Shown here: in pieces, positions 4,775 through 55,954 of the stretch
Position numbering within the stretch: position 1 is the stretch's first letter
How the letters are laid out: every line of letters starts with the position of its first letter
NCBI GenBank assembly: GCA_964566425.1
Contig: CAZMIL010000003.1
Span: 1,203-65,202 of the forward strand
DNA length: 64,000 nt
DNA from: an uncultured Gammaproteobacteria bacterium
GTDB lineage: Bacteria > Patescibacteriota > Microgenomatia > UBA1406 > GWC2-37-13
Direction: 5' to 3'
Program-made: the position numbers and the translations under genes
Notes under the pieces: generated by a model
Told to the model about the DNA's origin: nothing
The model's database searches: none
What the model saw: only the letters and a program-made list of their open reading frames with translations

Positions 4775-6484
4775 ATGGAAGAGATTAATAAAATCAAAGT
4801 TCGACTGCAAAAATTGATAAAAAGTAAGGTCAAGTACCCTTATGCTCGTCCCTTAAAAGTAATAGAGGAGAACGGTAAATATTACCTGATTTTTAGAAAT
4901 TTTAAGCAAAATGAGAGTGATTTAGTCGCTGGCAGCAGTGACGGATTTGATTTTGAGAATCTTGAAACTATCCCCAAACTGGCTAACTTTGAAAGCCGAC
5001 ATCCGGCCAGCGCCATTGTTGCTGAGTACAAAGCACATGGGAAAAAAGTTATATATTATGGCGACCGTCAAATTTTTCTTGCCTACGCAGACGGAAGACA
5101 GCAGTGGGAGACCAACACGCAGCCGCTTATCCTCTCTGCAAATCCAACTGAGGTGGGTGGAGCGTTTTTGTTCTCTAAGGGGCCACTGATTCTTTATTTT
5201 GAAAAATATATCGAAGAGGGCATTACTTACTACCGCGCTTTTTTTGCCCAATTTGATAAAAAAAACCCAGAAAATTTATTGTGGAAAATGAATAGGCCAA
5301 TATGGGATAGTCGTGATTCGTGGCCGCATAAACAAGCCGTTCCTCTTGGGTCGGTCAAACGCGACAAGGAAATTGTTGCCTATTGGTATGTCGGTGAAGA
5401 AGTTATCTATGCGGTTCTGCTCAGAGACTTTTTCTATGAACCCCAAGCCATTGATATTCGTCCTACTTATTTAAAAAAACACCAGCAAAATCCAATTCTT
5501 GCTCCACGAGAGGAAAATGCGTGGGAAGCCTTCACGACGCTTAATCCGGCTGCGGTTTATTTAGACGGTAAGGTCCACCTTTTGTATCGGGCCCAGGGAT
5601 ATGATTATATTTCGACAATCGGATATGCCGTCAGTTCTGACGGTTTATTTATAGACGAGCGCATGAATCAACCGGTCTATGAACCATCTGTGTGGTTTGA
5701 GACAAATACAAGCGGCCGCGCAAATCCGAAACTCGTCTCTGCTGGCGGCTACGGCGGCTGTGAAGATCCGCGGGCGACTGTGCTTGACAAGAGACTTTAT
5801 ATGGTCTATGTCGCTTTTGACGGGTGGTCAAATCTGCGTTTAGCCCTAACATCCATTGATATTTACGACTTTTTAAACCAACGTTGGAATTGGGAGAAAC
5901 CCGTACTTATCTCGCCGCCAGGTGTAATTGATAAAAGCGGATGTCTTTTGCCGGAAAAGATAAACGGCAAATATGTCTTTTTCCATAGAGTTTTCCCCAA
6001 CATTCTTATTGACTATGTAGACGATCTGAACTTTGATGGTAAAAACAATTTCTTGCCAGGCAAATATCAAATAAAAGTGAGGCCAGGGAAGTGGGACAGC
6101 AGAAAAATTGGGGCTGGTGCGCCGCCTCTAAAGACAAAAGATGGCTGGCTGTTGATATATTATGGAGTTGATGATAAAGATGCCTCTAAATATCATATTG
6201 GAGCAATGCTTTTGGATCTAAATGACCCAACGCGCGTTTTGCACAGATCAAATAGACCGATCTTAAGCCCTGAAGAAGAATACGAAGTGACAGGTTTTAA
6301 GCCGGGGATTGCTTATCCTTGCGGGGCAGTAATTATCAAGGATGATTTACTTGTATATTATGGAGCAGCCGATTCTGTGGTTTGCGTGGCAAAAGCAAAT
6401 TTGGCGGCTTTTTTAGCAGAGTTCAAGTCCGATCAAACTCCACACATGAAAAACGTACAAATTAAGGAGGTTGCCTACAGATGA
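4775..6484 (+). CDS. GH130-family glycoside phosphorylase/hydrolase-like protein (C-terminal GH130 module plus a degenerate N-terminal beta-propeller-like half)
   Basis: 569-aa ORF. NPILAPREENAWEAFTTLNPAAVYLDGKVHLLYRAQG, GCEDPR and YYGAADS motifs are typical of GH130. Confidence 0.75.
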   Translation: MEEINKIKVRLQKLIKSKVKYPYARPLKVIEENGKYYLIFRNFKQNESDLVAGSSDGFDFENLETIPKLANFESRHPASAIVAEYKAHGKKVIYYGDRQIFLAYADGRQQWETNTQPLILSANPTEVGGAFLFSKGPLILYFEKYIEEGITYYRAFFAQFDKKNPENLLWKMNRPIWDSRDSWPHKQAVPLGSVKRDKEIVAYWYVGEEVIYAVLLRDFFYEPQAIDIRPTYLKKHQQNPILAPREENAWEAFTTLNPAAVYLDGKVHLLYRAQGYDYISTIGYAVSSDGLFIDERMNQPVYEPSVWFETNTSGRANPKLVSAGGYGGCEDPRATVLDKRLYMVYVAFDGWSNLRLALTSIDIYDFLNQRWNWEKPVLISPPGVIDKSGCLLPEKINGKYVFFHRVFPNILIDYVDDLNFDGKNNFLPGKYQIKVRPGKWDSRKIGAGAPPLKTKDGWLLIYYGVDDKDASKYHIGAMLLDLNDPTRVLHRSNRPILSPEEEYEVTGFKPGIAYPCGAVIIKDDLLVYYGAADSVVCVAKANLAAFLAEFKSDQTPHMKNVQIKEVAYR

Positions 6485-8421
6485 TACTTTCTAGGTCTCC
6501 AAATAATCCTATTCTGAAGCCTAATCCAGCTAATTCTTGGGAAAATAGCGCGACTTTTAATGGGAGTATTATAAAAAGCGATGGGAAATATGTTCTTTTT
6601 TACCGTGCGCTTGGCGACGAACAAAAAATTGAGAACAAAAAATTGCAGGTTTCGGTAATCGGCAAGTCAATAAGTGCCGATGGAGTGAATTTTAATCAAC
6701 GATCTGTATTCCTTTCCCCTAAAGATATTTGGGAAAAATACGGCTGCGAAGATCCGAGAGTTACTTATCTAGAAGGAAAATATTTCATTTTTTATACTGC
6801 TCTTTCCAGTTTTCCTCCCGACTTCAAAAATATTCGTGTCGGTGTGGCAATCTCGCCGGATCTTCAGAATATAACTGAGCGACATTTAGTTACGCCCTTT
6901 AATGCTAAAGCGATGGTTATGTTTCCGGAAAAGATAAACGGCAAATATACTGTTATCTTAACCGTAAATACAGATAATCCGCCAACACATATTGCGCTTG
7001 CACAATTTGAAAAGCTTGAAACCTTGTGGGATTTGAATTATTGGCAGGATTGGTATCAAAATTTAAAACAGCACATCGTCCCACTGCGTAGGGTCAACAG
7101 TGATAATGTAGAGGTTGGCGCAGTGCCGCTAAAGACTTCAGCCGGGTGGGTATTTATTCATTCATATATCAAACATTACTTTAGCGCTAATGTTAAAAGA
7201 GAGTTCAGAATAGAGGCGGTTTTGCTCGACTTAAATGATCCACAAAAAATAATCGGTCGAATAGAAAATCCTCTTTTGATCCCTGAGGAAGAGTACGAAA
7301 AAAAAGGCAACATTTCCGAGGTTGTTTTTCCTGAAGGAGCTTTGGTCCAGGGGAATACGTTACGAGTCTATTACGGTGCCGCAGATACTTACTGTGCTCT
7401 TGCTGAAGCACCTTTTGACGAATTTATGCGCTCTTTTGAAGTGAATCTTCCAGGGACTCTTAAGTGCAACAAATTTCCCCAAAACCCGATCTTAGAGCCT
7501 ATTGTGGAACATTCATGGGAGTCAAAAGCTGTATTTAATCCTGGCGCCGTAGAGCTTGAGAATAAAATTTATCTGATTTATCGTGCAGTGTCCGAAGAGA
7601 ATGTATCACAGTTTGGATTGGCGATAAGCCAAGACGGATTGTTGATTGACGAGCGGATAGATAAACCGATTTATTCCTTGAGAGCAGATTTTGAAAAGCC
7701 CTTAGAAAATGATAAGCCGGGCGGAGTCGAAGATCCAAGAATTACTAAAATCGGCGATATTTTGTACATGTTTTATACAGCTTATAATGGTAAAACTGCT
7801 CGTCTGGCAATCTCAAGCATTGCTGTGACTGATTTTTTGCAGCGTAAATGGGAGGCTTGGTCTTACCCCAAAGTGATTTCTCCCCCAAAAATAATGGATA
7901 AAGACGGGATGATTTTTCCGGAAAAGATAAACGACAAATATGTTATTTTTCACCGCATAGAGCCCAATATTTGTATTGATTTTGTCGAAAACCTTGATTT
8001 TTCAAACGGCTTTTTAAAAACAAAAGGCATTATTACTCCCCACAATCGGACATGGGATGAAAAGAAGATTGGGATAAATACTCCACCTATGAAGACCGCA
8101 GCAGGATGGATCGTTTTTTATCATGGGATAAGTAAAATTGACGGACATTACAGAGTAGGAGCGTTGCTTTTAGATCTTTCAGATGTCACTAAAGTGATCG
8201 GCTGGACGCCGTACCCAATTCTTGAACCGGAGACCGATTTTGAAGAACGCGGCTTAGTAGACAATGTGGTTTTTCCTTGCGGCTATGTCATCCGGCAAGA
8301 TACAATCTATCTCTATTACGGTGGCGCAGATAAAGTAGTCTGCGGCGCAACCGTCTCATTGAAAGCCTTGTTAACCTATCTTCTCAAAAGCACATCCCGA
8401 AAATACCTTGTTTATCCGTAA
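6481..8421 (+). CDS. Tandem double GH130-family protein
   Basis: 646-aa ORF with an ATGA overlap on the upstream gene. There are two copies of NPIL.P....WE..A.FN, GCEDPR/GVEDPR and YYGAAD/YYGGAD. Confidence 0.8.
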   Translation: MILSRSPNNPILKPNPANSWENSATFNGSIIKSDGKYVLFYRALGDEQKIENKKLQVSVIGKSISADGVNFNQRSVFLSPKDIWEKYGCEDPRVTYLEGKYFIFYTALSSFPPDFKNIRVGVAISPDLQNITERHLVTPFNAKAMVMFPEKINGKYTVILTVNTDNPPTHIALAQFEKLETLWDLNYWQDWYQNLKQHIVPLRRVNSDNVEVGAVPLKTSAGWVFIHSYIKHYFSANVKREFRIEAVLLDLNDPQKIIGRIENPLLIPEEEYEKKGNISEVVFPEGALVQGNTLRVYYGAADTYCALAEAPFDEFMRSFEVNLPGTLKCNKFPQNPILEPIVEHSWESKAVFNPGAVELENKIYLIYRAVSEENVSQFGLAISQDGLLIDERIDKPIYSLRADFEKPLENDKPGGVEDPRITKIGDILYMFYTAYNGKTARLAISSIAVTDFLQRKWEAWSYPKVISPPKIMDKDGMIFPEKINDKYVIFHRIEPNICIDFVENLDFSNGFLKTKGIITPHNRTWDEKKIGINTPPMKTAAGWIVFYHGISKIDGHYRVGALLLDLSDVTKVIGWTPYPILEPETDFEERGLVDNVVFPCGYVIRQDTIYLYYGGADKVVCGATVSLKALLTYLLKSTSRKYLVYP

Positions 8422-11834: not shown

Positions 11835-11911
11835 GACCTCGTAGTTCAATTGGATAGAACGTCGGCTTGCGGAGCCGGTGGTTGGGCGTTCGAATCGCCC
11901 CGAGGTCACCA
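11835..11911 (+). tRNA. tRNA-Arg (anticodon GCG), CCA encoded
   Basis: gacctcg-ta-gttc-aattggata-gaac-g-tcggc-ttGCGga-gccgg-tggtt-gggcg-ttcgaat-cgccc-cgaggtc-a-cca. Confidence 0.85.
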
Positions 11912-44508: not shown

Positions 44509-47271
44509 TTATAAAACTAAAATTACGATAAAGGCTAGAGTTAACAGCCCGAAGCCGACATATTCCAAATACTGTGGCCAAAAAATCATCACAATGTTTT
44601 TTGCAGAGGGACTGTCTAGTTTCCAGCCATTTGCCCAATTATCGATCAAGACGTGGTCGGTTAATTCTTTTCCGTTTTGATAAGCTTTCCAACCAGGCTG
44701 ATACGATTGCCGAAGCAGGAGATAAGCTTGTTGCTGGTTGGATGATGAAGTTTGCATAGTTTTAAGCGCCATAATATCACTGTCAATCTCGGTAATTTTT
44801 ACTTGCGCTAGTTCATTGATGGCATCGTAATTTCCATAAGAAATATTGTCGATCGAGAGGTTATATCCCAGGCTGTTCTCCGACGGCGGGAGATAAAAAT
44901 AATCTTGTCCGAATTGTTTATTTTTAGAGAGTTCATCATATAGTGTGCACAAATTTGAATAAAGGTTTAAGAGACAGAATCTTAAAGGCATGCCGCTAAG
45001 ATTTTTAGAAGTAAAAGTGACAAAATAGCCTTTAGTATGCGGCAAACCGGATAGATCAAGATTGATTCCATTTTGGAAATTGTTAGTCTTCAAATAAATC
45101 GCTTTAGTTCCATTGTCATTAATCAACTTGAGTTGGAAACGATTTTTATTGAGAGAAAAAAGCGCGTCCGCATTCAAAGCTAATGTCCCCGCGCTTTTGC
45201 CGCTGTTGCTAAACTGATTAAACTTATTTGGACCAACGCGGTCGCTGACCTCGATCATACTACGGTAAGGGTAAACAACTGTTAACGGCGTTTGCAGGCT
45301 GTTAACAGTCAAATAATTACCATAACTCTCGTAGCCGTAATCGTTGAACCCCCAACGGTATGGTTGTAAATTAGCCTGTGGATAAATTATTTGGGAATAA
45401 GCAGGAACAGCTCCTCTGTACTTGAAAATTTGCAGCTTGCCAAACTGGCCGATTTTTGACAGACGTTGATCTTTTTCCAACTGCTTGATTAAAGCTTGAA
45501 TTTCCCGTTGATAAAGAATTTGTGGTCGATTTTTTTCATTATAGGTAATTACGCTTTGATCCCACAAAATATATTGGATATTGTATTTTTTCAAATCGTT
45601 AACAAAGTCTTGAGGACTGCGCGAGTAAATTGCAAAGTGGAATTCACGGAAAGCCTGTTCATTGGCAACACTCCAACGGTCGGAATCGCGATCAAGAATG
45701 GGCTGTTTTAAACCAAACCAAATAAAACCAGAGCCTTGGTATCCCCAGCGATAGTAATTCCAACCGGCAAAATTATAAACAGGAAGTGAAAGTACGGTTC
45801 CGTCGGGCTGCTTGTTCATAAAATCCCACATTTGCCAGTAGACCGCCGGAATTTTAATCCTAACTTTATCCGAAATGAGTCGTCCTTGGAAGAAAGGGAA
45901 ACTATAGATTATCAATCCGGCGATAAATATCAAAACACCTGTGAATAACCACCTGCTGCGGGTAATTTTCTCACTGATAAACCGCAAAAAAAGAGCCAAA
46001 TAAAGAGCGTAAGAAAAAATCAACAAGATCGAAAATTTAGTAAAAACAAAGCGTAGAGCCTCCTCCAATAATTTAAAAGACAACAACCAATTGAAAAGTC
46101 GATCAAAAGGAAAGGTATGATTCATCAGAAAAATAAACGGCAGGATAAAGAAGGGGAACAAGGAAAGAAAAGTTTTATTTTTACGCAGGAAAGAGAGAAT
46201 TATACCGAGAATCACCCCCACAAACAGCAAATAGCCGATTCCCGCCACGATCGGGTTATTGAGATATTGTCGCCAGTCATACATCAAATATTCGAAACGA
46301 TTTTTTTGAAAGTTATAAACAGTCCAGTTGAAATAAAAGCCTTTGCCCAAAGCAACGTCGGCAAGATAACCATTTTCTCGGTTACGCAAGCCGTATTCTT
46401 GCGAGTACAGACGGTTTTGTTTGGCTTCTCGATTGACAGTGGATGAGGTAAAAATATAATAGAGATTTGGCAACAGCCAGAACGAATTAATCAAAAGGGT
46501 TAAAACAATCAGAATTACTGACCTTTTTATTCTAATTATTCTGGTTTGTCCAGAATCTCGCTGAGCAGATTCCGGAGTTGCTTTACTCCCCAGAATGATA
46601 TAAACGACTAGGAAAAGAGCATAGGTCCCAAAGAAGGCATACCAAAGATGCGCAGCATAAGCTTGTGGTGTGGCCAACAGAGTAATCAATGAGAACAATA
46701 ATAGTGTTTTTCTGCCACCTTGCAAATATTTCAACGTTAGCAGGATGATCCATGGCAAAAAAGCATATTGAACAGTAAACATTTCAAAGGGGACAAAAAA
46801 TTGCTGCAAGGTTGAGAGATTAAAGAGATAAAAGAGAGCTGTTAAGAAGGCCACAATTCTGTCATTCTGAGTGGAGCGAAGAAGCCGCTTAAAATCTAGT
46901 CCTTCACTTCGTTCAGGGAGACGGCTAAACAAGTATTTGATTAGAGCATATACCCCCAAAGGACCGAGCAATAAGTTTATAAAAATATAGAAGTAGCGTA
47001 GGGTGTTTAAGGGAAGGATAAAATGCAATAGCCAAAGGATAACTACGCGTGGTAGATCGGCCATTTGACTGTGTCCGGGTAGCGCCCCCAGACCTTGTTC
47101 GCTATGCCAGACCGAAAGTAATCTTTGGAAATTGAGTCCGAAATTAAACTCCGGGTGCAGGGTATCCCAACCACTCAAGAATGTCCCGGCCTTGTAATTC
47201 AAAAAAGCAATGATCACGACAACAAGAGTTATAATTGCCTGCGGCCAATGTTTGTTCAGCCAGGTTTTCAT
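44509..47271 (-). CDS. Large polytopic membrane protein, putative GT-C-type glycosyltransferase
   Basis: 920 aa with about 15 TM in the N-terminal 500 aa and a soluble C-terminal half. Family not identified with confidence. Confidence 0.6.
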   Translation of the reverse strand: MKTWLNKHWPQAIITLVVVIIAFLNYKAGTFLSGWDTLHPEFNFGLNFQRLLSVWHSEQGLGALPGHSQMADLPRVVILWLLHFILPLNTLRYFYIFINLLLGPLGVYALIKYLFSRLPERSEGLDFKRLLRSTQNDRIVAFLTALFYLFNLSTLQQFFVPFEMFTVQYAFLPWIILLTLKYLQGGRKTLLLFSLITLLATPQAYAAHLWYAFFGTYALFLVVYIILGSKATPESAQRDSGQTRIIRIKRSVILIVLTLLINSFWLLPNLYYIFTSSTVNREAKQNRLYSQEYGLRNRENGYLADVALGKGFYFNWTVYNFQKNRFEYLMYDWRQYLNNPIVAGIGYLLFVGVILGIILSFLRKNKTFLSLFPFFILPFIFLMNHTFPFDRLFNWLLSFKLLEEALRFVFTKFSILLIFSYALYLALFLRFISEKITRSRWLFTGVLIFIAGLIIYSFPFFQGRLISDKVRIKIPAVYWQMWDFMNKQPDGTVLSLPVYNFAGWNYYRWGYQGSGFIWFGLKQPILDRDSDRWSVANEQAFREFHFAIYSRSPQDFVNDLKKYNIQYILWDQSVITYNEKNRPQILYQREIQALIKQLEKDQRLSKIGQFGKLQIFKYRGAVPAYSQIIYPQANLQPYRWGFNDYGYESYGNYLTVNSLQTPLTVVYPYRSMIEVSDRVGPNKFNQFSNSGKSAGTLALNADALFSLNKNRFQLKLINDNGTKAIYLKTNNFQNGINLDLSGLPHTKGYFVTFTSKNLSGMPLRFCLLNLYSNLCTLYDELSKNKQFGQDYFYLPPSENSLGYNLSIDNISYGNYDAINELAQVKITEIDSDIMALKTMQTSSSNQQQAYLLLRQSYQPGWKAYQNGKELTDHVLIDNWANGWKLDSPSAKNIVMIFWPQYLEYVGFGLLTLAFIVILVL
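46538..46556. repeat. Palindromic module attctgg-tttgt-ccagaat inside the 920-aa CDS
   Basis: 7-bp perfect stem with a 5-nt loop, the same design as 31115-31135. It encodes ...RDSGQTRI... Confidence 0.5.
46861..46916. repeat. GTCATTCTGA-anchored imperfect inverted repeat inside the 920-aa CDS
   Basis: gtcattctgagtggagcgaag ... cttcacttcgttcag. It encodes PERSEGLDFKRLLRSTQND. Confidence 0.45.
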
Positions 47272-47275
47272 ATAC

Positions 47276-47992
47276 TTATTTTGACAGATTGAGTCTTACA
47301 GTGGGGGCGATATCGTAAGGTGTAGAAACTAGTCTTTTGTAAAAGTTGAGGGTTTTATCAAGTTTTTTTTCTTGTTTGTGGTCGGTGCGTACTAGGGTTG
47401 CCGGTAAGAGAATGATCTGTTCCTCGGGAATAAACTGACTCAATTTTTTCTGCAATGAGGGCTTAAACAAGATGATGTTATTGGTTAGATTAGCGATTGA
47501 TTTATAAAAATATCCGAGAAAGAGATTAAAAAGTGTGCGTTCGAAAACGGCTTTCCAAGGCGTATTTTTGCGGATGCTCTTCTCACTCAAAACTTGGTGG
47601 AATTCGAAATAGACTCTCTTTTTGCTCAGCTTTAACCAAAAGAGAATAAGAGGAAGGACTAAATTATTAGTCAATTTTTTACCAAAAATTTTGAAATGAA
47701 ATTGGACTAAAATATGAGTGATTTTATCGTTTTTGACGATGTAGGGGACAAGTCTGAACAAAGAGAGGGGTTTGTTTTTCTCCCAGATGCGCTCGATGAT
47801 CAGATTTTTCTGCTCGGAATGACGTTGCCTTTTTCCATAGTGTTCGGCCAGAACCAATATCTGTTGCTTTTTAGCCAATTTTTTGAGGGCCTTTTGGCTG
47901 TCAAAGAGCATGTCGTGGGCGAAAGGGGAGATGACTAGCAAAGTTTCTTCGCTGTTTAGGTAGATTCTTTTTTTTGTCGTGCGTTTTTTCAT
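47276..47992 (-). CDS. Hypothetical protein (possibly a GT4-like N-terminal half)
   Basis: 238-aa ORF that contains gtcattccgagcagaaaaatc (minus-strand sense, about 47803-47823). Confidence 0.5.
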   Translation of the reverse strand: MKKRTTKKRIYLNSEETLLVISPFAHDMLFDSQKALKKLAKKQQILVLAEHYGKRQRHSEQKNLIIERIWEKNKPLSLFRLVPYIVKNDKITHILVQFHFKIFGKKLTNNLVLPLILFWLKLSKKRVYFEFHQVLSEKSIRKNTPWKAVFERTLFNLFLGYFYKSIANLTNNIILFKPSLQKKLSQFIPEEQIILLPATLVRTDHKQEKKLDKTLNFYKRLVSTPYDIAPTVRLNLSK

Positions 47993-47996
47993 ATTT

Positions 47997-48218
47997 TTAG
48001 TACCCTTTTTCTTTTAGACACTGTTCATAAACCTGTTTCACTGGATAGGAAACTATTGCTCCGTTGACGTCCTTGGTTTGATATTGAGAGCTCAGGGCAC
48101 AGTCTCCCATGGCTTTTAGTTTGAGAAAAGTATTAACTTTTTGTAAACCAAGCCACAGTGCAACCGCCAGTAAAACTAGCCAAAAGAGGTTAAAAATGAT
48201 TTTTTGTGCGTTGTTCAT
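47997..48218 (-). CDS. Small membrane-anchored protein
   Basis: 73 aa with an N-terminal TM and 2 Cys. Confidence 0.5.
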   Translation of the reverse strand: MNNAQKIIFNLFWLVLLAVALWLGLQKVNTFLKLKAMGDCALSSQYQTKDVNGAIVSYPVKQVYEQCLKEKGY

Positions 48219-48262
48219 ATTTCGCTCTACGTTCGAAATGTCATCCTGAACTTGTTTCAGGT
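48219..48262. repeat. Two adjacent palindromic modules abutting the ATG of 47997..48218
   Basis: atttcg-ctctacgtt-cgaaat (48219-48239), then gtcatcctgaa-cttgt-ttcagg (48240-48261). Confidence 0.55.
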
Positions 48263-48408
48263 CATGATTATTTCTCGACCGTATAGGGAAATACGGGAGC
48301 TAATGAATATTTTGATAACTGGCGGGCAAAAGCCAGCTGTCGAGAATTAATCTCGACTTAAATCAAAACTTCAAAAGCTCCCGACATCAGTCGGAGTATC
48401 TAGGAATT

Positions 48409-48487
48409 CCCAGGAGGGGGAGCGAGCTCAGGGTAACAGCCCCGGCCGAAGGGAGGATTTCCCCGTCGCTCGCTCCCCAAACCTGGG
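48409..48487. other. Long GC-rich hairpin (6 + 11 bp stem, 40-nt apical region)
   Basis: cccagg-ag-gggagcgagc... pairs with gctcgctcccc-aaa-cctggg. It lies between the stop of the 357-aa island gene and the AT-rich hairpin cluster. Function unknown. Confidence 0.5.
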
Positions 48488-48556
48488 TTGTGGAATCACT
48501 GAAGACTGTTATCTCTGTAACAGTTTTAACTCCAGCGATCCACGCTTAGGCGACGC

Positions 48557-49603
48557 TTACCGCGTGACAGTGGTCTTGAGCACGGCCAAGATGTCGGTCC
48601 CTGCGGACACGACGACCGTAGCGTTAACCACGTTGCACCCTTTGACGTCACCGCAGTTACCACCGGCGTTGGCGGGGTTTCCCGAGTTGAGAATTTCTCC
48701 CGGACGCGCCAGTGTTGGCATGTTCAGCATGTTCGCCGCGGTGTTGGAAACGAGTCCCCAGACTGCCTGATCGAGCTTGTCGCCGTTCCAGTAACGACCG
48801 GCAACGGTGAAACCGTTGTCAGCCATTTGGTTGCGCCAAGTGACAGTCTTGTCCATCACGTTGATCAACAGGAGGAGACAACCCTGGTTGCAGTTCATCC
48901 CCTGGAAGTTGTATCGAGCCGTGATCAGACGGTAGCTCCAACCTGGAACCACGAAATCGCAACGCATGTCCTGTTCGCAGAACGGGACGTTGGCAACTCC
49001 GTATTCGGCTCCGTTGCGCACGCTAAACGACGAAACATCCGGATTGGGGATGTTGGGATAAGTCCGCCAGTTAGCCGGCTCGGGATCCTGCAGCCGCTTG
49101 ATCCAAGTCAGAACGATCGGGTTCTTGGTCAGATCCTTCATCTGCTGGACCTGCCAACTACCGACGTTCCAAGTGGAAACAGGTTGCGGCATGGTTCCGG
49201 TGTCGCCAACCAACTGACCGTTGCCGTTGTCCGCGGGAGCAGGGGACTGCTCAGCCGGGCTCGGACTGACGTCACTGACGCTGTTGCCGACCTGACTGGG
49301 CGAGGGATCGACCTTCTGCTGTGAACCAGCAGTGTTGATATACTCAACCCTGGTTCCAGAAGGCCAATTCACTGCCACCACGAATGCAAGGAATACAACC
49401 GCAGCGGCGAGAATCGCCACCGATGGTGCGAGCCACTTGGAGATGGGGCTCTGAACGACCTTGACTTCGGTCTTACTGGTCCGCCTCGGCGTTGCCGGAC
49501 GGGATGCAGTTGACTTGCTTCCGCTCTTGCGCGGAGGATCTACCATTGCTTGTCTCCTTTCGATTTTCGGAGGGCGCATGAGACGTCGGTGTCGACGTGT
49601 CAT
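48557..49603 (-). CDS. High-GC hypothetical single-pass membrane protein (Arg-rich N-terminus, P/S linker, Cys-containing ectodomain)
   Basis: The ORF track gives 48557..49630. ATG 49603 (MTRRHRR) has a GGAAGGA SD 7 nt upstream. TM SVAILAAAVVFLAFVVAV. No family recognised. Confidence 0.7.
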   Translation of the reverse strand: MTRRHRRLMRPPKIERRQAMVDPPRKSGSKSTASRPATPRRTSKTEVKVVQSPISKWLAPSVAILAAAVVFLAFVVAVNWPSGTRVEYINTAGSQQKVDPSPSQVGNSVSDVSPSPAEQSPAPADNGNGQLVGDTGTMPQPVSTWNVGSWQVQQMKDLTKNPIVLTWIKRLQDPEPANWRTYPNIPNPDVSSFSVRNGAEYGVANVPFCEQDMRCDFVVPGWSYRLITARYNFQGMNCNQGCLLLLINVMDKTVTWRNQMADNGFTVAGRYWNGDKLDQAVWGLVSNTAANMLNMPTLARPGEILNSGNPANAGGNCGDVKGCNVVNATVVVSAGTDILAVLKTTVTR

Positions 49604-49837
49604 GACATTTCCTTCCTGCTTGTATGCCAACAGAGCACGACACTATTCAGTTCTGACTGTTTTAAGTCATCACCTCCTTCTTGACCGCGAAGAGACTCCG
49701 ATGACTTTCTTGCGGTCTCTAATATGGTAGCGCCGTCTGATTAGTCGCTCTTTTTTTCTCCTTTCTTCTTCTTCCGGATCTGGGCGTTGGTTCTTTCTTC
49801 CCATGGGCGGCCCCCTTACCGCACTTGCTGGTAGTTG

Positions 49838-50248
49838 TTATGAACTACCGCCGCCGGTGATCGGGAAGAAGCGTAGATCGACACGCTTGCAGCCTCTTTG
49901 GCACTGATCGAGACTTCTCATATCCCGACCAATCGAATCAACCAGTTGGCCAGTGATGCCGCCGCCGTACCTGAAGAGAACCTTGCATGTGCTCAGACAG
50001 TCGACGATCATGCCAGAGTTAGGGTCGGAATCCGGATGGATCCAATAACCTTTTCTTCCGGCAGGGCCGACTTCAACGTCGCCGAAGACCCGGCAGTCGG
50101 CCTTAACGATCACCTTGACGGGATGCTTTGGCTGGCTGGGAATCGAGCGATCGCCACAACGCGGGTTTGGCTTTTGCGCTTGGGCAATTGTAAAACTGCC
50201 AAAGAGCAGGCCGACTGCAACGAGAGCAACAAACCATTTGTACTTCAT
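49838..50248 (-). CDS. High-GC hypothetical secreted 6-Cys protein
   Basis: 136 aa with signal peptide MKYKWFVALVAVGLLFGSFTIAQA. An AAGGAGG SD lies 7 nt upstream. Confidence 0.7.
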   Translation of the reverse strand: MKYKWFVALVAVGLLFGSFTIAQAQKPNPRCGDRSIPSQPKHPVKVIVKADCRVFGDVEVGPAGRKGYWIHPDSDPNSGMIVDCLSTCKVLFRYGGGITGQLVDSIGRDMRSLDQCQRGCKRVDLRFFPITGGGSS

Positions 50249-50292
50249 CTGCCGTCCTCCTTTTTTGCGGGGCCGCGCGTCGGGGAAAACAG

Positions 50293-50397
50293 TCAGCAGG
50301 GTCGCTGAAGAACCACCACCAGGGCAGTTCCCAGTACCAGAGCAATCACAAGCAGAGCGAAGCTCAGCTTTGATTCTTTGGTAGGCAGCCGATGCAT
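50293..50397 (-). CDS. 34-aa single-TM sORF MHRLPTKESKLSFALLVIALVLGTALVVVLQRPC
   Basis: A GGAAAGGA SD lies 6 nt upstream of the ATG (50397-50395). Same strand as the island genes and 44 nt upstream of the next one. Not in the ORF track. Confidence 0.4.
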   Translation of the reverse strand: MHRLPTKESKLSFALLVIALVLGTALVVVLQRPC

Positions 50398-50628
50398 GAT
50401 TGTTCCTTTCCGGGCCGCGCGTTACAAATGACGATGCTCAGGCTCCTCTCTCAGGAAGGGGGAGAAGTAGAAGGCAACCCGAGCCGTCCCAACGTGCACG
50501 ATCTACTCCAGATTTACCTCATTTTCACCTCCTTTAGAAGCCTTGTGATATACAGGTCAGAGCTTGAATTTTCTGTAAAAATTGTTGATGCCAAAATCCA
50601 TTCTCCTTAAGCTAATAGGTTTCCTGTT

Positions 50629-50686
50629 ACTAGAGTTAGGGTCCTAGAGACGACCAGAGAGTCATCTCCAGAATCCTAACTCTAGT
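50629..50686. other. 58-nt hairpin with a 12-bp perfect outer stem
   Basis: actagagttagg (50629-50640) / cctaactctagt (50675-50686), with an inner 6/7 stem ctagaga/tctccag. On the plus strand it is followed by ttatttttcc. Confidence 0.5.
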
Positions 50687-50821
50687 TTATTTTTCCTAAA
50701 TACTCTAGATGTTAAAGTGCGATGAAAATCTTGGCTGTTCAAGCTAAATAAACAGAGTTAATTTTTCATCACCTGTTTCTTGGCATCTAGGAAAAAGGAA
50801 GCAATCTCCCTTCCTAATACC

Positions 50822-50846
50822 AAAAAACCTTGGGCTCAACCCAAGG
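50822..50846 (-). terminator. Rho-independent terminator of 50911..51588
   Basis: Minus strand: ccttggg-ttgag-cccaagg followed by tttttt. Confidence 0.7.
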
Positions 50847-50910
50847 AATAAGAGGCAGCTCCTGCTAGCAGACAGGGAGTTACCTCTTACTCCCATTGTC
50901 GAGTCCGTGA

Positions 50911-51588
50911 TTATCGTGGACGTTTTTTCAAAAAAACACCAACTCCTAAAGCTCCGAATTCAAGACCGATTAAGACCAATCCAAATTCTGGCCCTGTGGA
51001 AGGGACACTTTTCACCCCAAGAACCTGTTTTTCGATACAAAATTGAGCAGTATCTTGATCAAAAACTTCGCTATTGGAAGCTTGTGCTTTGTTGATTTCA
51101 CAAAAAACACTTTGATCTATAGGCATCTGATCTTGTGGAGTTATTTTCATGGTTAAAAAGTAAGTTTTTTCTTCTTGAGAAGCGAAATTACCAGCATCGA
51201 AGCTAAGTGTGCGAGAATTGGCGTCAAAATTACCAGGACCGGAAACAGGAACCAAAAGGGCAGGGACAAAATCCTTAACCTGCACATTAGTTAAAGCCAC
51301 ATCAGAAGTATTTTTAACCTTTAATTTAAAAACGATCTGTTGATCCGGAGCAAAACGAACATCAGAAGAAGAAAGGTTGTCGACAAAATTTAGTTGATCA
51401 ACATTATTATTTTTGGCTTGATTAGGGACGCTGATCATTTTATCTATCATAATAGATTTAGAAGGAACAGGGGCTCCATATTGTCCATATTCGCCGTACT
51501 GCCCATGAACTTTTGGAGTTATAAAAAGAAGTAGGGCTGCTGCTACAACCCCGACAAAAAAAGTATTACTCGTCCGCCCCCTTTTCAT
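50911..51588 (-). CDS. Secreted DUF11-like repeat protein with an LPXTG-type sorting signal (VPSTG + TM + KKRPR)
   Basis: Signal peptide. KLKVKNTSDVALTNVQVKDFVP. C-terminus SVPSTGPEFGLVLIGLEFGALGVGVFLKKRPR. Confidence 0.65.
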   Translation of the reverse strand: MKRGRTSNTFFVGVVAAALLLFITPKVHGQYGEYGQYGAPVPSKSIMIDKMISVPNQAKNNNVDQLNFVDNLSSSDVRFAPDQQIVFKLKVKNTSDVALTNVQVKDFVPALLVPVSGPGNFDANSRTLSFDAGNFASQEEKTYFLTMKITPQDQMPIDQSVFCEINKAQASNSEVFDQDTAQFCIEKQVLGVKSVPSTGPEFGLVLIGLEFGALGVGVFLKKRPR

Positions 51589-51673
51589 ATTGAGAGATAA
51601 GTATACTACAGGAATAAATAATAGTCAACTATAGGACAAATTTTGAAATTTTTATAGGAAAATTAATAACTGG

Positions 51674-51679
51674 TATAAT
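51674..51679 (+). promoter_or_regulatory. -10 box TATAAT, 6 nt before ATG 51686 (leaderless-type)
   Basis: The sequence reads tggtataat-ttttat-ATG. Confidence 0.45.
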
Positions 51680-51685
51680 TTTTAT

Positions 51686-52216
51686 ATGAAATTGGGAGCA
51701 AGGGAACTTAGAGAAGTGGAGGGGAAGGATGCGCAGCAGAGGCTAAAAAAGCTCAAGCGCCGCCCGCTTTATCTAATTTTGGAGAACATATATGATACGT
51801 ATAATGTGGGGGGACTTTACCGGCTTGCCGACGCTTTAGCCGTGGAAAAGCTATATTTGTGCGGAGAGATGGAAACCCCTCCCAATTCGCGTATCGCTAA
51901 AGCTTCGATAGGCACATATAAGATCGTGCTCTGGGAGTATAAAAAAAGCGCCAAAGAGGCAATAGAAGGACTAAAGGCAAAAGGAGTGCAAATAATAGGG
52001 ATTGAGCAAGATAAGCGCGCTATAGCTTACACAGAAGCAAAATATAGCCTTCCTCTAGCCTTCGTGGTTGGCAACGAGACCGCAGGCGTTACACCCGCAA
52101 CTCTTAACCTCTGCGATCAGATTGTCGAGATTCCGATGTGGGGGATTAATAAGTCCTTGAACGTTATCGTTTCGGCCGCAATCGTTAGCTATTGGGCTGT
52201 TGCTAAGCAAGAATAA
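51686..52216 (+). CDS. SpoU/TrmH-family RNA 2'-O-methyltransferase
   Basis: LILENIYDTYNVGGLYRLADA, VVGNETAGV and IPMWGINKSLNVIVSAAI. Confidence 0.8.
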   Translation: MKLGARELREVEGKDAQQRLKKLKRRPLYLILENIYDTYNVGGLYRLADALAVEKLYLCGEMETPPNSRIAKASIGTYKIVLWEYKKSAKEAIEGLKAKGVQIIGIEQDKRAIAYTEAKYSLPLAFVVGNETAGVTPATLNLCDQIVEIPMWGINKSLNVIVSAAIVSYWAVAKQE

Positions 52217-55867: not shown

Positions 55868-55954
55868 GGGCGGGTGGCGGAACCGGCAGACGCGTAGGTC
55901 TCAAAAACCTATGGTGGCAACACCGTGAGGGTTCGACTCCCTCCTCGCCCACCA
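55868..55954 (+). tRNA. tRNA-Leu (anticodon CAA), CCA encoded
   Basis: gggcggg-tg-gcggaaccggcagacgc-g-taggt-ctCAAaa-accta-[variable arm]-gaggg-ttcgact-ccctc-ctcgccc-a-cca. Confidence 0.9.

Follow-up and report, generated by a model that had tools for sequence, protein, structure and literature searches.

The 64,000-nucleotide (nt) stretch of DNA analysed here, referred to as the window, comprises positions 1,203-65,202 of contig CAZMIL010000003.1 (assembly GCA_964566425.1; GTDB lineage Patescibacteriota; Microgenomatia; UBA1406; GWC2-37-13) and contains, between about 48400 and 50520, a GC-rich block whose largest gene encodes a membrane-anchored protein of 348 amino acids (aa). The original prediction, made from the sequence of the window, had described this block as an island of three minus-strand open reading frames (ORFs) without a recognizable family, possibly a recently acquired surface cassette or else an assembly artefact. 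The ORFs of 348, 136 and 34 aa are as described and the membrane-anchored or secreted nature of the products was supported, while a fourth ORF of 44 aa (49670-49804) had been overlooked (Table 1). Gene callers start the 348-aa gene at an internal ATG, which yields a protein of 329 aa. Throughout, the family gene means the 348-aa gene of the window and its homologues, the labels L001-L076 denote the loci or contigs compared, and P0002, P0079 and P0080 are homologous proteins.

When measured in 200-nt segments, G+C content was 0.52-0.605 from ~48300 to ~50500 and 0.32-0.49 on both sides (~0.40 where it begins to rise and 0.36-0.41 where it has fallen again), with the switch at each border completed in about 100-200 nt, and nowhere else in the 64 kb did a 1-kb bin exceed 0.50. 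The G+C content at third codon positions (GC3) reached 0.68 in the 348-aa gene (z = 5.9) and was 0.60 in the 136-aa gene (z = 4.3), relative to the 58 other window ORFs of at least 100 aa (mean 0.388, sd 0.049, maximum 0.494). All three codon positions of the GC-rich gene were shifted, and the 2.1-kb segment 48501-50600 was the top tetranucleotide outlier of the 64 kb (z = 5.6). Sliding G+C, GC3 and tetranucleotide scores thus confirmed both the block and the sharpness of its borders. A search of the borders for integrase, transposase and other mobility Pfam matches, for tRNA genes and for direct repeats found none, which agrees with the earlier claim on integrase, transposase and tRNA, and the nearest tRNA lies at 55868. 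The claim that the block contains no promoter of the TTGACA-N17-TATAAT type also held, since no sigma-70 consensus promoter was found within 48200-50950, and a repeat scan of the window revealed no transfer-origin features.

Table 1. Coordinates of the GC-rich block, its regulatory features and its flanking genes
Feature	Position	Strand	Description and basis
Main gene, 348 aa	48557..49603	-	Arg-rich cytoplasmic tail, transmembrane (TM) helix 59-78, P/S/A-rich linker, conserved ~215-aa extracellular domain with 6 conserved Cys
Structured 3' untranslated region (UTR)	48372..48556	-	GC-rich hairpins, the last a terminator-like stem (CUCCGAC...GUCGGGAG) with a U-rich run behind it
Perfect complement of the anti-Shine-Dalgarno (anti-SD) sequence, AAGAAGGAGGTGA	49660..49683	-	Terminal part of the 44-aa ORF; a 2-codon mini-ORF (ATG ACT TAA) comes next; 76 nt 5' of the 348-aa start
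Highly basic small ORF, 44 aa	49670..49804	-	Between the 136-aa and 348-aa genes; tblastn matches in L023 and L025
Secreted protein, 136 aa, 6 Cys	49838..50248	-	Signal-peptide-like N-terminus; Shine-Dalgarno (SD) sequence AAGGAGG; GC3 0.60
Single-TM small ORF, 34 aa	50293..50397	-	C-terminal Cys; L023 has an ORF of equal length at this position (MLIKAKETRLSFALLILALALVITLEVILRWHTC)
Copies of motif CGCGCGGCCCCG	50265-50280, 50407-50422; L023 ~5487-5500, ~5627-5640	-	Repeat search and comparison with L023
Hairpin with 26-nt arms	50629..50686	-	Inverted repeat at the upstream border of the island
Single-pass membrane protein, 73 aa	47997..48218	-	GC3 0.39 (host-like); tblastn matches directly 3' of the family gene in about 30 loci
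238-aa protein	47276..47992	-	Resembles the N-terminal half of a GT4-type glycosyltransferase; tblastn to 442-aa proteins of L008 and L020
Polytopic membrane protein, 920 aa	44509..47271	-	GT-C fold (AftD-like) with C-terminal beta-sandwich domains like carbohydrate-binding modules (CBM); AlphaFold2 (AF2) and Foldseek
P-loop ATPase, VirD4/TraD/DUF87-like, 722 aa	42334..44502	-	Partial NCBIfam matches
DUF11 (CLIPPER) repeat surface protein, 225 aa	50911..51588	-	Pfam PF01345, E 7e-9; GC3 0.27; syntenic in many loci

An independent assembly covers both borders: L001 (5561 bp), from the Logan assembly of SRR5161805, matches positions 46340-51900 of the window at 99.95% identity. Related loci were obtained by fetching the contigs that encode homologues and by scanning genome and metagenome collections, which gave 49 non-redundant loci. 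The 348-aa protein has 77 homologues in a word-indexed search and 158 representative clusters in an exhaustive profile search, the named sources of which are Levybacteria, Woesebacteria or 'Patescibacteria'. Searches of Pfam, NCBIfam and PDB (sequence and profile) gave no match to it. The statement that no family could be recognized is therefore right for the curated libraries and wrong for sequence collections at large; the family is Microgenomates-specific and consists of uncharacterized, lineage-specific surface proteins. Seven of the loci compared (L008, L009, L010, L015 and L019-L021) are from metagenome-assembled genomes (MAGs) titled 'uncultured Gammaproteobacteria', yet their Microgenomates gene content and synteny are clear, and the titles of these contigs probably represent mislabelled taxonomy in public records.

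Gene order is shared among the loci: a DUF11/CLIPPER protein comes first, then a variable set of small ORFs, the family gene, a ~73-aa single-pass membrane protein, in some loci a glycosyltransferase, and finally a ~900-1000-aa membrane protein (the GT-C gene, described below). The G+C content of the family gene (0.44-0.63) was higher than that of the flanks (0.34-0.48) in 49 of 49 loci, the GC3 of its conserved domain ranged from 0.44 to 0.85 across loci, and both synteny and GC-richness persisted down to about 37% protein identity. None of the 49 loci had a GC-rich host background. Likewise, no GC-rich reservoir was found among short contigs, the flanks of which were all at most 0.55 and were raised only where there was an extra upstream GC-rich ORF, and no relatives of the family were found in 2.9 million viral contigs. 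Literature searches retrieved no description of the family, nor of gene-specific GC islands in the candidate phyla radiation (CPR). The block has been inherited vertically and forms an operon-like part of a cell-envelope locus conserved in Microgenomates. Among the hallmarks of horizontally acquired islands, atypical composition was found, and patchy presence, mobility signatures and, in the one genome pair compared, amelioration were not. The original prediction had named, as an outcome that would speak against it, a block that is syntenic and GC-rich in relatives and belongs to a housekeeping family; synteny and GC-richness were indeed found, but the family is one of lineage-specific surface proteins rather than a housekeeping one.

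The location of the excess within the locus was determined from a G+C meta-profile of 34 loci aligned at the stop codon of the family gene. The excess amounted to +0.11 to +0.19 over the last ~850 nt of the coding sequence (CDS), fell to +0.08 in the first 50 nt past the stop and reached baseline beyond +100; it was smaller upstream of the conserved domain. Some 14 loci are GC-rich over the 600 nt upstream as well, owing to an extra lineage-specific gene for a small secreted protein, the counterpart in position of the 136-aa gene of the window. Third positions carry most of the excess. Pooled third positions of the family were C 0.38, G 0.25, A 0.13 and T 0.24, compared with C 0.19, G 0.20, A 0.28 and T 0.33 in flanking genes. 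The codons that increased were NNC, CGY, GGY, AAG, CAG and CTG/CTC, and those that decreased were ATA, AGA, CGA, CTA, TTA and GGA. The balance of GAA and GAG was unchanged and GGG was not favoured, indicating that the shift toward G+C is not uniform. GC-ending codons were modestly enriched at conserved sites (Mantel-Haenszel odds ratio 1.18, Z 2.9, from sequences that are not independent). The window encodes a tRNA-Arg with anticodon GCG at 11835-11911, the direct reader of CGC and CGU; for Arg, the family prefers CGC and CGT.

Whether this composition is decaying or maintained was addressed in one genome pair, L014 and L015. Third-position divergence at codons for the same amino acid was 0.31 for the family gene, 0.32 for the GT-C gene and 0.34 for the DUF11 gene, from which it follows that the family gene has been co-inherited with its neighbours since the two genomes split. 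Polarized changes between strong (S; G or C) and weak (W; A or T) bases numbered 16 S>W and 12 W>S in the family gene (GC3 0.70), and 86 S>W and 111 W>S in its GT-C neighbour (GC3 0.28), so that each of the two genes is near its own compositional equilibrium. The per-site rate of GC>AT change was ~3.4-fold lower in the family gene than in the neighbour and the rate of AT>GC change was equal. A divergence equal to that of the neighbours, with GC3 held at 0.70, is incompatible with unameliorated foreign DNA. In addition, members of the Levybacteria type that differ by 20-45% in protein sequence have GC3 values of 0.63-0.75 in genomes of 0.26-0.38. A gene-specific fixation bias is at work, rather than a lack of time for amelioration.

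Nearly all members of the family (74 of 77) have an N-terminal hydrophobic anchor, either a TM helix that follows a cytoplasmic tail, as in the window protein, or a lipobox-like signal. The anchor leads into a linker of 0-254 aa (median 67), 47% of it P+T+S+A, after which comes the 215-aa domain. The domain alignment contains 16 invariant positions, among which are Gly, Trp and Cys residues, including three Cys pairs at close spacing, and its indels are in frame. In the AF2 model of the window protein, helix 59-78 follows the Arg-rich N-terminus, and the predicted local distance difference test (pLDDT) score exceeds 90 over residues ~140-348. A Foldseek search of PDB and BFVD returned no significant fold match, and neither S-layer domains (SLH and others) nor similarity to a solved S-layer protein was found. 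The model predicts a disulfide-bonded domain of undescribed fold. The N-terminal anchor and linker module is hypervariable, as seen at L014:9095-9900 relative to L015, and it has been swapped at L008:9450-9900 relative to L020, in loci that are otherwise almost identical.

The expression signals of the block differ from those of most neighbours, as had been predicted, with SD-like sequences at both of its larger genes. A TATAAT hexamer matching at five or more of six positions and ending 3-10 nt (mode 6) before the ATG was present at 18 of 68 window ORFs, compared with 26 of 600 random ATGs (4%), and was often accompanied by TTGACA at -35. Host genes are largely leaderless, but the earlier statement that they mostly begin 6 nt after a TATAAT box was too strong. 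SD-like 4-mers were found at only seven of the 68 ORFs, two of which are island genes. Across the 49 loci, a 7-mer complementary to the anti-SD sequence (AAGGAGG, AGGAGGT or GGAGGTG) occurred within 350 nt upstream of the family gene in 31, where about four would be expected from the background of 0.23 per kb, and in 18 of these 31 it was placed at -11 to -13 relative to the called ATG. The complement in the window leader lies farther from the start (Table 1). The corresponding SD of L025 and L023 falls within the last part of the 44-aa ORF and precedes the ATG of the family gene by 4 nt, and the Arg-rich N-terminal extension of the window protein is shared with P0002. Judging from these alignments, the window lineage apparently added the Arg-rich extension downstream of an ancestral coupling site.

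Transcripts of the family are also predicted to be highly structured. The 120 nt past the stop had a mean folding energy of -38.9 kcal/mol in the family compared with -22.1 kcal/mol for 241 other ORFs (p = 3e-21), and strong folding after the stop held in members with an AT-rich 3' region too. The 3' UTR of the window had a minimum free energy of -93.3 kcal/mol for 211 nt (z = -5.9 relative to dinucleotide shuffles). Within the CDS, native sequences folded better than synonymous shuffles, with mean z-scores of -3.8 (whole-gene shuffles) and -4.3 (shuffles in 50-codon blocks) compared with -1.2 +/- 1.3 for 23 control genes, the shuffles being of a kind that does not preserve dinucleotides at codon junctions. 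Rfam gave nothing at gathering or permissive thresholds other than one chance-level match (E 0.31). The RNA structure is generic and does not represent a defined RNA.

Downstream of the family gene, the setting points to envelope glycosylation. The AF2 model of the 920-aa protein has a mean pLDDT of 90.4 and a predicted TM-score (pTM) of 0.90, and its best Foldseek match was mycobacterial AftD (6w98; E 7e-12, TM-score relative to the query (TMq) 0.53), followed by DPY19, STT3, PglB and ArnT. The protein belongs to a family of more than 786 members across Microgenomates that is syntenic with the family gene in nearly all loci and has invariant residues W35, D36, P40 and E41 in the first loop, directly after TM1. 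As modelled, it shares with AftD (PDB 6w98), PglB, STT3, PMT and DPY19 the GT-C fold, extracytoplasmic CBM-like domains and acidic first-loop residues. Its similarity to known GT-C enzymes is undetectable at the sequence level, no Pfam or NCBIfam match was obtained, and the island protein is a putative acceptor. The 238-aa window protein itself had no Pfam match; the 442-aa proteins of L008 and L020 match Glycos_transf_1 and Glyco_trans_1_4, and in L005 a GT2 gene occupies the place of the 238-aa gene. These neighbours mark the locus as one for envelope glycosylation, in which the stalked, anchored protein is a plausible acceptor.

Two loci carry an unrelated gene in the slot 5' of the GT-C gene. 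In L074 this gene (5730-6869) is itself compositionally raised (GC3 0.50 vs 0.21-0.26), whereas in L076 (5980-6924) GC3 is 0.23 and not raised; the slot is empty in L075. The outcome is mixed, but the L074 case hints that GC-richness may belong to the role of the slot.

We consider it somewhat more probable than not that the block is a maintained GC-rich surface-protein operon whose composition is caused by selection on the expression of one transcript. Selection for decoding that is efficient or accurate, for mRNA stability, or for the two together would keep the transcript GC-rich. GC-richness would then be one of a set of expression-related traits, its four companions being a codon choice that favours C-ending, CGY and GGY codons and avoids A-ending ones, a strong SD, stable 3' hairpins and excess mRNA structure. 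The main protein, held by a TM or lipid anchor and carrying its ~215-aa domain on a flexible P/T/S/A-rich stalk, would form an abundant, S-layer-like coat, probably glycosylated on the stalk by the adjoining machinery. That CPR cells contain few ribosomes is stated in PMC12641178, citing Luef et al. 2015. In such ultra-small cells, translational demand would be dominated by a coat protein required in thousands of copies and ribosomal proteins would be needed in tens, and selection at synonymous sites might then be effective in one gene only. The analysis shows the conservation, the synteny, the restriction of the excess to the CDS, the compositional equilibrium, the codon pattern, the expression signals and the modelled fold of the GT-C neighbour; that the gene is highly expressed, that its product is a glycosylated coat protein and what the selective agent is are inferred, the S-layer-like and glycoprotein role from protein architecture and gene neighbourhood. 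Selection on expression is favoured because the excess is confined to the CDS, because the pattern is codon-specific, and because it is found together with a strong SD, 3' hairpins and excess structure. A fuller version of this explanation is tentative and, on balance, doubtful: that the protein is the major S-layer-like surface-coat glycoprotein of Microgenomates, with a new fold, glycosylated by an AftD-like GT-C enzyme, and that the island results from a cell with tens of ribosomes devoting most of its translation to one mRNA, so that selection at synonymous sites (for decoding or mRNA stability) becomes visible in that gene alone.

Several observations weigh against selection on expression as the cause. 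The main objection comes from the highly expressed genes used as a reference in the codon comparison, namely an S1-domain gene (putative bS1), Rho and L28, which are unbiased: across 10-11 of these loci, GC3 was 0.32 for the S1-domain gene and 0.34 for Rho compared with a background of 0.35, their NNC fractions were 0.24 and 0.29 compared with 0.31, and the L28 gene in the window had a GC3 of 0.36. The family gene thus does not represent the upper end of a gradient of translational selection across the genome. Members of the Woesebacteria type show only a small excess (GC3 ~0.44-0.50). The distance matrices of the domain and the GT-C protein are weakly congruent (r = 0.29) and include clearly incongruent pairs, and L008 and L020 share a 5.5-kb tract, spanning the DUF11 and GT-C genes, that is 93-100% identical in a background of 72-85%. 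This recombination mosaic and the incongruence of the trees indicate that exchange between lineages occurs. Finally, the test of equilibrium comes from the single pair L014 and L015, in which the conservation of predicted base pairs was no better than in slid controls, and the shuffling scheme described above qualifies the excess of structure in the CDS.

An assembly chimera, with a GC-rich fragment joined into an AT-rich contig, would produce abrupt compositional borders such as these, but the independent assembly reads through both of them and equal junctions are present in dozens of unrelated assemblies, which leaves this explanation with almost no probability. Recent horizontal acquisition of a surface cassette fits the atypical G+C, GC3 and tetranucleotide composition, the sharp borders and the SD-led genes in a mostly leaderless genome; it is nonetheless very improbable, given that the block is GC-rich and syntenic in all relatives examined, that sister genomes carry the 136-, 44- and 34-aa ORFs at corresponding positions, that mobility genes, tRNA and border repeats were not found, and that the composition is at equilibrium, with synonymous divergence like that of the neighbours in L014 and L015. 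The independent assembly and the presence of the block in sister genomes refute both of these proposals, and with them the original suggestions of an artefact and of a foreign cassette. Also very improbable is a gene tuned for export, adapted to a GC-richer host cell after T-DNA-like transfer through the VirD4-like ATPase. Compositionally distinct, SD-led genes do lie beside a VirD4/TraD-like ATPase; however, the product has its own N-terminal anchor or lipobox, a putative signal for export by the producing cell, its gene is invariably coupled to GT-C and small membrane protein genes of normal composition, no transfer-origin features were found, and in many loci no ATPase is adjacent. A structured non-coding RNA or an antisense gene, with the protein incidental, would agree with the very low folding z-score of the 3' UTR, with a CDS that folds better than its synonymous shuffles, and with long stop-free antisense stretches that are in register with the sense codons and extend over the full gene in some loci. 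Clear conservation at the protein level, a confidently predicted fold, third positions that are the most divergent, and the absence both of an Rfam match and of pair conservation in L014 and L015 make it highly unlikely. An antisense gene was rejected, the open stretches being variable in length (median 147 codons); the openness of the antisense strand arises because TTA, CTA and TCA are avoided in the sense frame.

Two further explanations, both drawing on the recombination documented at the locus, are less improbable. Recurrent xenologous replacement, in which the cassette is re-imported by homologous recombination from an unsampled GC-rich pool (a lineage, plasmid or phage) and so looks foreign every time in a conserved slot, as has been argued for O-antigen or S-layer cassettes, would explain the r of 0.29, with near-identical domains beside distant neighbours and the reverse, as well as the L008/L020 tract with its swapped N-terminal module and the hypervariable module of L014 and L015; it is also in keeping with unbiased ribosomal-protein genes and with a shift at all three codon positions. 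We regard it as unlikely, with a small but real chance of being right, because no GC-rich background was seen in 49 loci and no relative in the 2.9 million viral contigs, divergence in L014/L015 equals that of the neighbours with substitutions at equilibrium, the codon shift is non-uniform (GAG and GGG are not raised), and the excess ends at the stop in the 34-locus profile, yet the recombination tract includes the AT-rich DUF11 and GT-C genes. GC-biased gene conversion at a recombination hotspot, with W>S fixation driven by frequent recombination at a diversifying surface locus in the absence of selection on expression, likewise finds support in that recombination, in a fixation bias that leaves synonymous divergence unreduced, and in the preference for G over A in most purine-ending codon pairs. 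It too is improbable, to a slightly greater degree: the excess is in one CDS (and small upstream genes) and absent from the co-recombining DUF11, 73-aa and GT-C genes, the third-position shift is asymmetric (C +0.19, G +0.06) with GAG and GGG not raised, and the co-occurrence of a strong SD and 3' hairpins is not predicted.

The locus has several partial analogues. The slpA-type S-layer genes of Lactobacillus, in AT-rich Firmicutes, combine outlier codon bias with a strong ribosome-binding site, structured UTRs and a strong terminator. The family gene resembles them in being a single surface gene with outlying codons, a strong SD, a structured UTR and a product predicted from its sequence to be exported and tethered. 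Unlike slpA, the family lacks SLH domains or a PDB-matched fold and has an N-terminal TM or lipobox anchor with a stalk, and its GC3 excess reaches +0.45 in genomes with unbiased ribosomal-protein genes. Enterobacterial O-antigen rfb clusters and the Clostridioides difficile slpA cassette are usually AT-rich, which is explained by transfer between lineages. With these the locus has in common a conserved slot for a surface structure, persistently atypical composition and recombinational exchange, whereas the family gene is GC-rich, one CDS is affected, and in one pair the gene is at its own equilibrium with neighbour-like divergence. The STAB-SD of Bacillus thuringiensis cry3A is a 5' mRNA stabilizer, to which the perfect anti-SD complement in the window leader (49660-49683) is similar in lying well 5' of the start; its counterpart in sister genomes, in contrast, is an SD that couples the 44-aa ORF to the family gene, and the window element may simply be a displaced SD before a 2-codon mini-ORF. 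Finally, selection for G+C-rich alleles on account of expression or fitness, described as genome-wide and weak, was proposed by Raghavan, Kelkar and Ochman 2012, as cited in Kelkar et al. 2015 (PMC4478552). It resembles the present case in being a selective, not a mutational, rise of synonymous G+C linked to expression, and differs from it in that here a single gene family shows the rise, throughout an entire bacterial lineage. What sets the locus apart from the known cases is a GC excess opposite in direction to that of the O-antigen and slpA cassettes, limited to one CDS, at equilibrium in one pair and accompanied by unbiased ribosomal-protein genes, in a family with an uncharacterized fold that is itself uncharacterized.

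If the fuller version of the explanation is correct, a gene-specific spike in GC3 could be a sequence-only marker of the dominant protein in uncultivated ultra-small bacteria. The locus is a rare instance in which a fixation bias at synonymous sites can be localized to one gene. Compositional islands are routinely read as transfer or misassembly, and this textbook-looking case is old, syntenic and vertical and keeps a base-composition equilibrium of its own throughout a CPR lineage, which calls for caution in island-calling and MAG-decontamination pipelines, by which such regions could be trimmed wrongly. To our knowledge, the envelope proteins and host-contact structures of Microgenomates are essentially undescribed, and the uncharacterized family and its GT-C partner are prime candidates for studies of Microgenomates cell-surface biology.

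The small genes of the block are also found in close relatives. The only homologues of the 136-aa protein were P0079 (63% identical) and P0080 (59%), whose genes (GC3 0.52 and 0.66) are each directly 5' of a family gene in the nearest relatives. The 44-aa ORFs of the window, L023 and L025 are equal in length and differ by conservative changes when aligned; Pfam and NCBIfam gave no match to the 44-aa ORF. Conservative changes also distinguish the 34-aa ORF of the window from MLIKAKETRLSFALLILALALVITLEVILRWHTC of L023, as aligned by reading the sequences. Just 5' of the SD of both the 34-aa and the 136-aa ORFs, in the window as in L023, is the GC-rich motif CGCGCGGCCCCG. Upstream of its 34-aa ORF, L023 encodes a 68-aa ORF with two TM segments; at 50400-50620 on the minus strand, the window has a 14-codon remnant with the same ATGGAT start, followed by the conserved AGGAGGTGA, and this similarity suggests gene decay at the upstream end of the island.

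The hairpin at the upstream border has an equivalent of different sequence at ~5150-5210 of L023, and both hairpins are preceded by a ~30-nt block (50682-50712 in the window) that is identical save for two positions (R, purine): CGCACTTTAACATCTAGRGTATTTAGGRAAAA. The border hairpin and the 30-nt block are possibly a leader or regulatory element of the island transcript.

At the locus's opposite end, the ATPase gene is directly 3' of the GT-C gene in L022, L008 and L020 as well as in the window, and a similar ATPase lies ~5 kb further downstream in L076. The ATPases of L022 and L076 match DUF87/TrwB_AAD_bind, and those of L008 and L020 are 723-aa homologues. The recurrent placement suggests a link between the envelope locus and the translocation ATPase.

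Right after the DUF11 gene is a ~110-nt non-coding element (50790-50915 on the minus strand; L023:4933-5037) that is 89% identical between the window and L023, compared with 46-63% for the adjoining proteins. It had no match in Rfam. The element contains hairpins and ends in the terminator CCTTGGGTTGAGCCCAAGG-T6, and is a candidate small RNA or conserved 3' UTR.

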